DNA from: Escherichia phage KK4
Strand: one strand, 5' to 3'
Sequence record: OR327750.1
DNA: 64,000 nt
Shown piece after piece: positions 37,139 through 38,778 of the stretch. The stretch's first letter is position 1; the number at the start of each line of letters is the position of its first letter. The notes under the pieces were generated by a model. That model was not told where the DNA came from. It did not search any database and saw only the letters and a program-made list of their open reading frames with translations. The position numbers and the translations under genes are program-made.

Positions 37139-37918
37139 TTAATTAAAAATATATACTTCATCAGTTCCATTCTTTTCTTTGGAATGATATATGTTAAAGA
37201 CGTATTTTTTATTAAGATGCTTAACATTATATTTTTTAGACCATTCTTTAAGAAGAGTGTTTTCCTTTCCGTGATGCTCTAAAACATTCGACAGTCCAAA
37301 TTTTATTCCTCTGTCATTTAAAGAATCTAAAAGATTTAAAAGGTCTTTTTCTTCTTCTTCTGACCAAAATTTATTATAATCAGCAACTGTTATAAGATAT
37401 GGAGGGTCCACATATACAAAATCGCCGTCTAGAATTTTGACATCTTTAAAATGCAATGAACTAAAGATTATTTTATCACAATTTTGTTTAAAGTGATTAA
37501 AGCGCTTTTCACTATTTTTGTTTATAGTTCTTTTTCCAAACGGAGTAGTAAAATTTCCTTTATCGTTTATACGAATCATATTACTAAACCCGTGAAAATG
37601 AAGAACATAAAGTAAAAGAGGATCTCTAGTTTTATTATAATCTTCACGTAATTTCAAAAACTCTTCTTTTGATGTTTTTGATAGTTTATATTGCTTTATT
37701 ACTTTTAATACGTCATCCCATGATACATTAATAAGACGCTTATACATTTCAATAATTGGTTCTTGAATATCATTGGCCAATACAGGACCATTGACGTTCA
37801 AAGACACGGATAAACCTCCACAAAATAAATCCACGAATCTGTCATATTTTGGAAAATGAGGCTTAAGTTCAGGTAATAATGACTGTTTATTACCTGTATA
37901 CGCGATAGCTCCTAGCAT
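37139..37918 (-). CDS. dam: DNA adenine (GATC) methyltransferase Dam
   Basis: 259 aa; FxGxG (DLFCGGLS) and DPPY motifs. Confidence 0.92.
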
Positions 37919-38478
37919 TATATTCTCTCATTTATTGCAGCAAAAAACGAATTATATAATTCTTCATCATATGTATTTGATAGTAATACTAACACGTTTT
38001 GTGATTTAGCATATTCATTAAACCTTGCTTGGATAGTTGGATTATCAGTAAATGATTCTCTTTTTGTCCATTTATTACGTGGATAATATCCGCATGGCAA
38101 AAAATCTAATATCATCAATGACACAGGGTTTTCAGTTTTTGTGTATTCTTTTAATTTCTCTTTATCTTCTAAATATATTCCAACCGAATCAATAGCTGTA
38201 CCTCCACCAACTTGGTGTTTAATTTCAATTATATGCTTTTTACCGTTGCGAGAAATAACAATATCAAATCTTCTAGTACGCTTCTTAGTTATAAAATTAG
38301 AACAAAACAAATTATTTGATTTTTCAGTATCATCGGTTAAAACCATTTTTTCTTGATAACTAACTGAACAATCAGTGAAATATTCTTTTACTTTATTAAG
38401 TATGAAATTTTCAACTACGGCAGATATTTTATATGAATCTCCGTTTAAAGCCATTTCATGCACAATTTTATTAATCAT
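37918..38478 (-). CDS. putative PD-(D/E)xK-family nuclease (186 aa), no T4 counterpart recalled
   Basis: [21 protein letters not shown] fits D...ExK core; own promoter and GAGGA SD; stop overlaps dam ATG by 1 nt. Confidence 0.55.
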
Positions 38479-38503
38479 TATATCATCCTCAGCAATTTAT
38501 TTT

Positions 38504-38533
38504 ATAATACCATAACAAGCTGAGAAAGTAAAC
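38504..38533 (-). promoter_or_regulatory. early promoter for the 186-aa gene
   Basis: revcomp GTTTAC 38528-38533, 18-nt spacer, TGgTATTAT extended -10. Confidence 0.55.
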
Positions 38534-38577
38534 AAATTTATGAAATTTGTGATAAATATTAATTTAAAGGAGGACAT

Positions 38578-38778
38578 ATGGCACAAAAATTAATGGCACT
38601 TGTTAATGCCATCAAAGGTAATAAGAAACGTATAGCTTTTACTATTTCTGCTATGGTAGGAATTTTACTCTGGAACTTTATTTTATCACCAATTGCAATT
38701 GCGCATGGTGTTAATATTCCAGTAGTTACTCTTGATACATTCGTAGATCTAGCATTTGCTTTAGTTGGGTTAATTTAA
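38578..38778 (+). CDS. small membrane protein (66 aa) on + strand, divergent from the 186-aa gene
   Basis: AAAGGAGG SD 4-5 nt before ATG; TM helix IAFTISAMVGILLWNFILSPIAIA; ATAAATA 20 nt upstream; 3' end overlaps primase stop by 4 nt. Confidence 0.45.
   Translation: MAQKLMALVNAIKGNKKRIAFTISAMVGILLWNFILSPIAIAHGVNIPVVTLDTFVDLAFALVGLI

Follow-up and report, generated by a model that had tools for sequence, protein, structure and literature searches.

A likely GATC restriction-modification-like cassette that joins a PD-(D/E)xK nuclease gene to dam in T4-like phages

Introduction

Restriction enzymes of the DpnII/MboI/LlaDCHI family (PF04556) cut unmethylated GATC and are partnered by Dam-family D12 methylases, and a GATC restriction-modification (R-M) pair encoded by a lytic virus is known from the chloroviruses in the form of R.CviAI/M.CviAI. 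Work on the Dam methylases of phages T2 and T4 goes back to the 1960s; the phages can do without the enzyme, and what it does in nature is unclear. T4 also carries the Seg and Mob endonucleases, which drive their own spread by cutting insert-free genomes, with recombinational repair following the cut. The present analysis concerns the region upstream of dam in Escherichia phage KK4, contained in a 64,000-nucleotide (nt) stretch of sequence record OR327750.1 (hereafter the window), and in particular the interval 37918-38778 between dam and the primase gene 61. An earlier note, made from the letters of this DNA alone, read the interval as two divergent genes, a nuclease-like open reading frame (ORF) of 186 amino acids (aa) on the - strand and a 66-aa membrane protein gene on the + strand. 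Both ORFs, together with their dam and gene 61 context, are found where the note placed them (Table 1). The unit that they reveal is a three-part cassette, composed of an early promoter, the 186-aa nuclease gene and dam, and not a nuclease with a membrane protein. It is likely a GATC R-M-like cassette. The nuclease fold and its linkage to Dam are well supported, and we infer the specificity and the biological role of the nuclease.

Linkage of the nuclease gene to dam

Dam lies directly downstream of the nuclease in every context in which the nuclease was found, which bears out the suggestion of the earlier note that this adjacency matters. In the window, the nuclease stop codon and the dam start codon share a single base (TAATG). 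A D12 methylase gene is also found directly 3' of the nuclease gene in T2, in Dhakavirus MX01, in Jiaodavirus KPV15 and Lion_ER11 and in four metagenomic lineages, and the gap or overlap between the two genes stays within -35 to +13 nt in all lineages. Altogether, the nuclease gene adjoins or overlaps a methylase gene at 10 loci from seven lineages and at no fewer than two genome sites; in Jiaodavirus the cassette is flanked by the rIIB/denB region on one side and by ndd/topoisomerase on the other, instead of by genes 56 and 61. Two of the metagenomic nuclease relatives have 225-227 aa and 35-37% identity. The nuclease and Dam diverge in parallel, with identities by lineage of 100, 98, 64, 63, 57, 43, 37 and 35% for the former and of 100, 100, 76, 71, 72, 63, 53 and 56% for the latter, and a neighbour-joining tree groups the Dams that are linked to a nuclease in a single clade.

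The distribution of the two genes among phage records is one-sided. Full-length matches, which hold both genes, account for 148 of the 183 records that match the cassette; the others consist of dam and a nuclease remnant with the junction seen in T4, and no class of records with the nuclease alone was seen among the 183. The cassette is carried by ~30% of Tequatrovirus (T4-like) records, and the nuclease is present in ~80% of dam-carrying Tequatrovirus-type phages as well as in every other sampled lineage of the same Dam clade. The nuclease and Dam are mobile as a unit and obligately linked. Because the nuclease never occurs without the methylase, and the methylase often occurs alone, the pattern is the one expected of an R-M pair, and T-even Dam is plausibly the M half of such a phage-borne pair. 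Judging by its family assignment, Dam would recognise GATC.

The solitary dam genes of KP15, RB43 and ECD7, which represent other genera of the Straboviridae, lie upstream of nrdC and gene 49. A short unrelated ORF (81-143 aa) abuts or overlaps the dam start in each of these phages, the KP15 and RB43 versions being homologous; as candidates for decayed nuclease genes these ORFs were rejected, as they show no similarity to the nuclease.

Fold and active site of the 186-aa protein

The fold proposed in the earlier note, a PD-(D/E)xK domain with an acidic/lysine site, agrees with a structure model, with structural searches and with the pattern of invariant residues. The AlphaFold2 model, built from an 8-sequence alignment, has a predicted local distance difference test score of 81.7 and a predicted template-modelling (TM) score of 0.79. 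Its topology, alpha(E23)-beta1-beta2(D72)-beta3(E85,K87)-alpha-beta4, is the alpha-beta-beta-beta-alpha-beta core of the PD-(D/E)xK enzymes, with E23 on helix 15-33, D72 on strand 66-77, and E85 and K87 on strand 80-88. The D...ExK core motif is present as the note described, with a change in numbering from D82, E94 and K96 to D72, E85 and K87; these three residues and E23 are the candidate catalytic residues. All 25 of the top Foldseek matches of this model in the PDB are PD-(D/E)xK nucleases, and the MX01 homologue, modelled independently in BFVD, superposes on it with a TM score of 0.92.

Conservation points in the same direction. E23, D72, E85, K87, H88 and Q89 and a GTAIDS loop are invariant in 11 sequences with identities down to 29%, and the gene is under purifying selection, with a ratio of nonsynonymous to synonymous substitution rates (dN/dS) of 0.1-0.4. 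As modelled, the protein is a compact restriction-endonuclease-like PD-(D/E)xK nuclease of approximately the size and fold class of MunI, and a nuclease activity, which would be metal-dependent, is predicted for it.

Sequence databases place the protein in a phage-specific family. PHROGs assigns it to a family of unknown function; searches of PDB sequences with the single protein and with a family profile give no match, and NCBIfam gives no meaningful match for either the 186-aa or the 66-aa protein. A profile search of 1.84 billion representative proteins returned 12, of which the real ones all belong to the same phage family and the others are repeats or chance matches. Scans of IMG/VR, of metagenomes and of the genomes of 185,579 species yielded no further nuclease lineage. 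The family appears to be confined to Tevenvirinae-like virulent phages.

In GenBank, the gene is labelled "hypothetical protein" in almost all records and, wrongly, as a capsid protein in some. Across AP018813 (T2), OQ944321 (GADU22), NC_054907 (T6) and several others, the wrong labels comprise "head outer capsid protein" for the nuclease gene, "putative head morphogenesis protein" for the small ORF and "FokI modification methylase" for Dam. The record of phage Shinka (MZ502379) labels the nuclease gene "putative DpnII restriction endonuclease". No paper on the gene came up in a literature search that covered the gene itself, "dam.1", phage Shinka and DpnII-like enzymes of T4-like phages, and that did not extend to the T4 genome review or to the T2 dam paper of 1988. 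The cassette belongs to a known kind of system, of which it is a divergent variant restricted to phages; it has been flagged in one database annotation and is otherwise unstudied.

Relationship to the DpnII family

In a Pfam scan covering 24,736 families, DpnII is the top match for three members of the nuclease family; members P0011, P0013, P0006 and P0005 have no match to the DpnII model. The PADLOC model REase_II matches the nuclease with an E value of 9e-5. For profile comparison, a set of DpnII-family proteins was assembled with a sequence used only as bait, which retrieved a 99% identical PF04556 protein and one protein named DpnII; the set was then widened with diverse plasmid members, whose genes all adjoin Dam-family methylase genes. 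Alignment of the phage family to two DpnII alignments with hhalign gives a score of 32.7 and P ~5e-4, at a probability of only 30-32%. When the columns of the phage alignment are shuffled (200 shuffles), the mean score is 13.8, with a standard deviation of 2.4 and a maximum of 22.8. In the hhalign register, E23, D72 and E85 stand opposite the DpnII invariants E152, D201 and E214, and the GG(T/S) loops also line up; the order of secondary-structure elements in a DpnII model matches that of the phage protein in this register.

This weak but reproducible similarity suggests that the 186-aa protein may be remotely related to the catalytic core of DpnII/MboI. Its membership in the DpnII family is unproven. 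That it works like a small DpnII/MunI-type enzyme is the best-supported reading.

Deletion of the nuclease gene in T4

The earlier note took T4 to have no genes between dam and gene 61. None is annotated in the 309-bp gap of the T4 RefSeq record, as the note would have it, but the gap contains an intact 66-aa ORF and a remnant made of the last 28 codons of the 186-aa gene. T4 accordingly holds one of the two ORFs of this interval, the small one, which is uncharacterised there, and has the nuclease gene deleted. The T4 sequence joins the two window copies of an 8-bp direct repeat (Table 1) at a junction that reads TTTGCGAT; because both joined sites read TTTGTGAT in the window, T4 is a derivative that arose by a microhomology deletion of 548 bp. 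The T4-type records listed (~33) all stop matching the window at position 38005, and this common end base indicates a single deletion event. T4 lost the nuclease gene secondarily and was left with an orphan Dam.

T2 carries the nuclease gene, annotated as T2_31 and encoding 181 aa. Miner and Hattman, in J Bacteriol in 1988, reportedly described a 536-bp insertion 5' of the T2 dam gene relative to T4, to which no function was assigned. GenBank record M22342, from 1988, which we take to be their T2 dam sequence, contains the nuclease ORF at 83-618, upstream of dam, and has only dam annotated. This record matches the nuclease in two pieces, probably through a frameshift error, which may be why the ORF was never annotated there. 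T6 and most Tequatroviruses have neither dam nor the nuclease gene and keep the small ORF.

Promoters and gene order

An early promoter for the nuclease gene had been proposed in the earlier note, and its elements are present: GTTTAC (38533-38528) and, after an 18-nt spacer, TGG-TATTAT (38509-38504). A generic sigma-70 scan is uninformative in this AT-rich stretch, with 11 sites as against 12.4 in shuffled sequence. Support comes instead from conservation across lineages beyond chance, as GTTTAC-N17/18-TAnnnT is found at -55/-31 from the nuclease ATG in eight of nine diverged lineages, including Jiaodavirus with its cassette at the other site. The GenBank records of JB75, Lutter and fPS-65 annotate a promoter at the same position. 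The GAGGA Shine-Dalgarno (SD) sequence that the note assigned to the nuclease gene is also in place.

A terminator is annotated in some GenBank records at the position of a - strand hairpin, which lies 160 nt past the gene 61 stop and inside the 5' part of the 66-aa ORF. This hairpin would keep transcription of gene 61 from running on into the cassette.

Shigella phage JK23 and other Tequatrovirus genomes match the studied region with 100% identity, and 503 phage records match positions 37700-39000. The - strand carries, in this order, primase gene 61, the 186-aa ORF, dam and the dCTPase gene 56. Presence/absence variation has a hotspot in the 56-dam-61 neighbourhood as a whole. When window 36366-37093 is compared with T4 (L001, 607-1786), the homing endonuclease gene segF is seen beside gene 56 in T4, and the window has a 64-aa ORF there instead (36366-36560). 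Farther away, the long - strand block is preceded by a + strand block of large ORFs (1289, 371, 216, 988, 260 and 218 aa) at 1748-11933; in their sizes and their order these resemble the tail-fibre genes 34-38 and holin t, for which they are candidates.

Table 1. Features of the dam-gene 61 region of the window
Feature	Coordinates	Strand	Basis
Primase gene 61	38775-39803	-	ORF
186-aa PD-(D/E)xK nuclease gene, phrog_8706; putative R subunit, DpnII-like/MunI-like	37918-38478	-	
dam, D12-class GATC N6-adenine methyltransferase; putative M subunit	37139-37918	-	PF02086, E 6.5e-51; TIGR00571, E 1.4e-69
dCTPase gene 56	36560-37093	-	
66-aa small hydrophobic protein gene, phrog_2024; outside the nuclease-dam cassette	38578-38778	+	ORF, conservation
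T4 early-type promoter of the cassette: GTTTAC, 18-nt spacer, TGG-TATTAT	38504-38533	-	Sequence, scan hit, cross-lineage conservation
SD of the nuclease gene, GAGGA, 7 nt upstream of the ATG	38486-38490	-	Sequence
Left copy of the 8-bp direct repeat TTTGTGAT, left end-point of the T4 deletion	37998-38005		
Right copy of the 8-bp direct repeat TTTGTGAT, right end-point of the T4 deletion	38546-38553		
Late-promoter-like motif GATAAATA, 26 nt upstream of the 66-aa ORF ATG	38551-38558	+	
SD of the 66-aa ORF, AGGAGG	38568-38573	+	
Terminator-like hairpin and T-run, 3' of gene 61 and 5' of the cassette promoter	38590-38615	-	

The 66-aa ORF

Several features that the earlier note gave for the small ORF hold up. 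Its AGGAGG SD and its 4-nt overlap with gene 61 (38775-38778, tail to tail) are confirmed, and in a crude scan no other + strand ORF within the - strand block has an SD, in line with the note. The encoded protein is hydrophobic, although not clearly with the one membrane span described, since two hydrophobic segments can be seen, at residues ~19-42 and 47-66.

The proposal that this protein is the partner of the nuclease finds no support in the distribution of the genes. Phage records with the small ORF number 692 (from Tequatrovirus, from Mosigvirus at ~55% identity and from Dhakavirus), and those with an intact nuclease ~154; in the records listed, the small ORF lies tail to tail with gene 61. 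It is kept in T6 and Mosigvirus, which have neither dam nor nuclease, and in T4 despite the nuclease deletion, and it is not found beside the cassette in Jiaodavirus. A dN/dS of 0.18 relative to Mosigvirus indicates purifying selection. The T4 copy (NC_000866, 17738-17938; L001, 2739-2939) is identical to that of the window at 64 of 66 residues and is unannotated in the T4 RefSeq record; elsewhere the gene is named "Dam.1" (T6), RB32ORF030w or RB69ORF029w.

The T4 late-promoter consensus is TATAAATA. An ATAAATA core is located at -26/-28 from the start of the small ORF in the window, T4, Mosigvirus JK42, MX01 and the metagenomic relative L014, and a perfect TATAAATA occurs upstream of it in MX01 and L014. 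The 66-aa ORF is most likely, from these sequence features, a separate, conserved, late-expressed small membrane protein gene.

In T6 (MH550421; L004, 3027-3212), the first ATG of the small ORF is altered (ATT/TTG context), and the gene is annotated from an internal ATG as 61 aa; T6 keeps a late-promoter-like AATAAATA farther upstream. In L014, an additional 93-aa ORF (4010-4291) is inserted between the small ORF and the nuclease gene, so that the intergenic region is itself a site of gene gain.

Proposed mechanism and alternatives

We think it somewhat probable that the cassette works as a type II R-M pair for GATC, with a nuclease remotely related to DpnII/MboI; its GATC specificity, its sensitivity to methylation and the identity of its target DNA are presumed in this account. 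The nuclease gene and dam would be transcribed early from one promoter and would be translationally coupled. Dam would keep the GATC sites of the phage itself N6-methylated, with glucosylated hydroxymethylcytosine (glucosyl-hmC) as a further shield of phage DNA, and the nuclease would cut unmethylated GATC in other DNA of the infected cell that contains plain cytosine. Possible targets are under-methylated co-infecting phages, plasmids and hosts that lack Dam. No other 4-bp palindrome of the window (positions 1-64000) is as depleted as GATC, with 85 sites observed and ~209 expected from a Markov model, an observed/expected ratio (O/E) of 0.41; the next lowest is TCGA, with an O/E of 0.64. This depletion is compatible with pressure from a GATC-directed nuclease and is not specific to such pressure. 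Only tentatively can it be proposed that the classical phage Dam is the cognate methylase of a functional, miniaturised GATC restriction enzyme encoded by virulent T-even phages.

Several observations weigh against this R-M account. Every match to DpnII falls below curated thresholds, with Pfam scores of 16.8 bits (window), 17.7 bits (P0002) and 22.5 bits (P0009) against a cut-off of 23, and an hhalign probability of ~30%. The N-terminal helical region of DpnII (~140-147 residues) is missing, the phage protein beginning at about DpnII residue 140. The first ranks in Foldseek go to PD-(D/E)xK domains that are not restriction enzymes, VC1899, Card1 and Can2, at modest TM scores of 0.3-0.45, and this leaves the sub-class of the nuclease unsettled. 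No bacterial relatives of the nuclease were found in 185,579 bacterial and archaeal species genomes or among the 1.84 billion representatives. Dam does not depend on the nuclease, since Slopekvirus, Pseudotevenvirus and Krischvirus have related Dams that stand alone, at another locus. E. coli, Shigella, Yersinia and Klebsiella, the usual hosts, are Dam+, and their DNA would be protected. The glucosyl-hmC DNA of T4 resists 94% of type II enzymes (PMC7653180), which makes Dam seemingly redundant for self-protection. The chief difficulty of the account lies in the target, for with host DNA and glucosyl-hmC DNA both protected, the substrate would have to be under-methylated cytosine DNA.

The last of these points also feed an account with the opposite logic, in which the nuclease would cut cytosine DNA, at GATC or at other sites, once it is methylated or regardless of methylation, and would destroy host or foreign DNA; glucosyl-hmC, not methylation, would protect the phage, and Dam would mark targets or have another role. 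Dam+ hosts leave few obvious targets for a methylation-sensitive enzyme, the fold and the Dam linkage are equally compatible with either logic, and the Jiaodavirus cassette adjoins a DenB-like endonuclease IV gene. T-even DNA is, moreover, already resistant to most type II enzymes (PMC7653180). Yet the sole family-specific sequence signal is to DpnII, a family whose members are blocked by N6-methyladenine, and neither the Pfam scan nor the AlphaFold2 model has a DpnI-like winged-helix methyl-reader domain in the 186-aa protein. A nuclease that never occurs without Dam, next to a Dam that often occurs alone, is moreover the classic signature of a toxic R guarded by its M, and we regard the opposite logic as unlikely. 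Another account is that of a free-standing homing-type or selfish endonuclease, which would cut insert-free genomes near the 56/61 junction and spread by recombinational repair with Dam as cargo. The presence/absence polymorphism of the cassette between conserved flanks, in ~30% of Tequatrovirus records, its different locus in Jiaodavirus and the location of T4 segF two genes away would all suit such an element. A homing enzyme has no need of a methylase, however, and the linkage to Dam and the co-divergence with it are absolute across two sites with unrelated flanks; the specificity would have to shift with the site, and it is type IIP restriction enzymes that come closest to the protein in structure and sequence. 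Homing is, on this evidence, quite unlikely.

Two further accounts would take the 186-aa protein out of the role of a restriction enzyme. It might be an inactive or regulatory DNA-binding derivative of a nuclease that steers the expression or the targets of Dam, for instance as a specificity or processivity factor on hydroxymethylcytosine DNA. The nuclease gene is translationally coupled upstream of dam, and methylation by the Dam of T2 (nuclease-plus) is more extensive than that by the Dam of T4 (nuclease-minus), both of which would fit regulation. Invariance of E23, D72, E85 and K87 down to 29% identity would nevertheless be unexpected in an inactivated fold, and T4 Dam works without the 186-aa protein; a regulatory derivative is very improbable. 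The pairing of the nuclease with the divergent 66-aa membrane protein, as an exclusion, anti-defence or toxin-like unit, draws on the fact that Tequatrovirus, Dhakavirus and some metagenomic relatives have the two genes side by side, with 100 bp of intergenic DNA common to both. Against it stand the record counts and the solitary small ORFs of T6, Mosigvirus and T4, the separation of the genes in Jiaodavirus, the extra ORF that intervenes in L014, and the promoter motif of the small ORF, which is late-type and not early-type. Such a pair is scarcely credible.

Implications

If the R-M account is correct, T-even Dam would serve in self-protection against the phage's own early-expressed nuclease, which would answer a decades-old question, and the nuclease would be a weapon for use on any unmethylated cytosine DNA present alongside the phage, be it that of competing phages, of plasmids or of Dam-less hosts. 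The reference phage T4 would then have hidden the role of Dam, having deleted the nuclease gene and kept an orphan methylase; T2, a standard laboratory phage, makes the function of Dam directly testable. The cassette would be a rare case of a restriction enzyme used by a virulent bacteriophage. It would also supply a very small GATC-family nuclease of possible practical use and a candidate for the selection that makes coliphages avoid GATC. Annotation stands to be corrected in two respects, namely the labels of the nuclease gene and the absence of the conserved 66-aa late gene from the T4 reference.

Comparison with known systems

Small homodimeric type IIP enzymes of the MunI/EcoRI class, which produce 5' four-base overhangs, show 10-12% identity with the phage protein; no sequence-level relationship to them was found, and recognition residues are not comparable. 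The DpnII/MboI/LlaDCHI family is closer. It shares with the cassette a Dam-family GATC methylase alongside the nuclease, and with the phage protein a common PD-(D/E)xK pattern, consisting of the helix with its E, (R/K)RFD(I/F)VI, hhIE(I/V)x and the GG(T/S) loop, such that all of the family invariants align in one register. The R-before-M gene order of the cassette also has a counterpart in a Haloarcula member of the family. The differences are of size, active site and setting. The phage protein has 186 aa and is without the N-terminal helical domain, whereas DpnII has ~280-300 aa, and it has a canonical ExK where DpnII has ExN and a later invariant K. Its gene, moreover, has a phage early promoter and is found only in Tevenvirinae-like virulent phages, not in bacteria.

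The difference between T2 and T4 described 5' of dam concerns the same locus and the same insert, which was not read as a gene at that time. What was then a T2 insertion is seen here as a deletion in T4, with its end-points in an 8-bp repeat and 28 codons kept.

The R.CviAI/M.CviAI pair differs in its substrate, since the host DNA of a chlorovirus is unmethylated whereas that of E. coli is Dam-methylated, and T-even DNA carries glucosyl-hmC in addition. The likeness between the two systems, if the R-M account of the phage cassette is correct, is that a lytic virus whose own GATC sites are methylated encodes both the methylase and a nuclease against unmethylated, non-self GATC.

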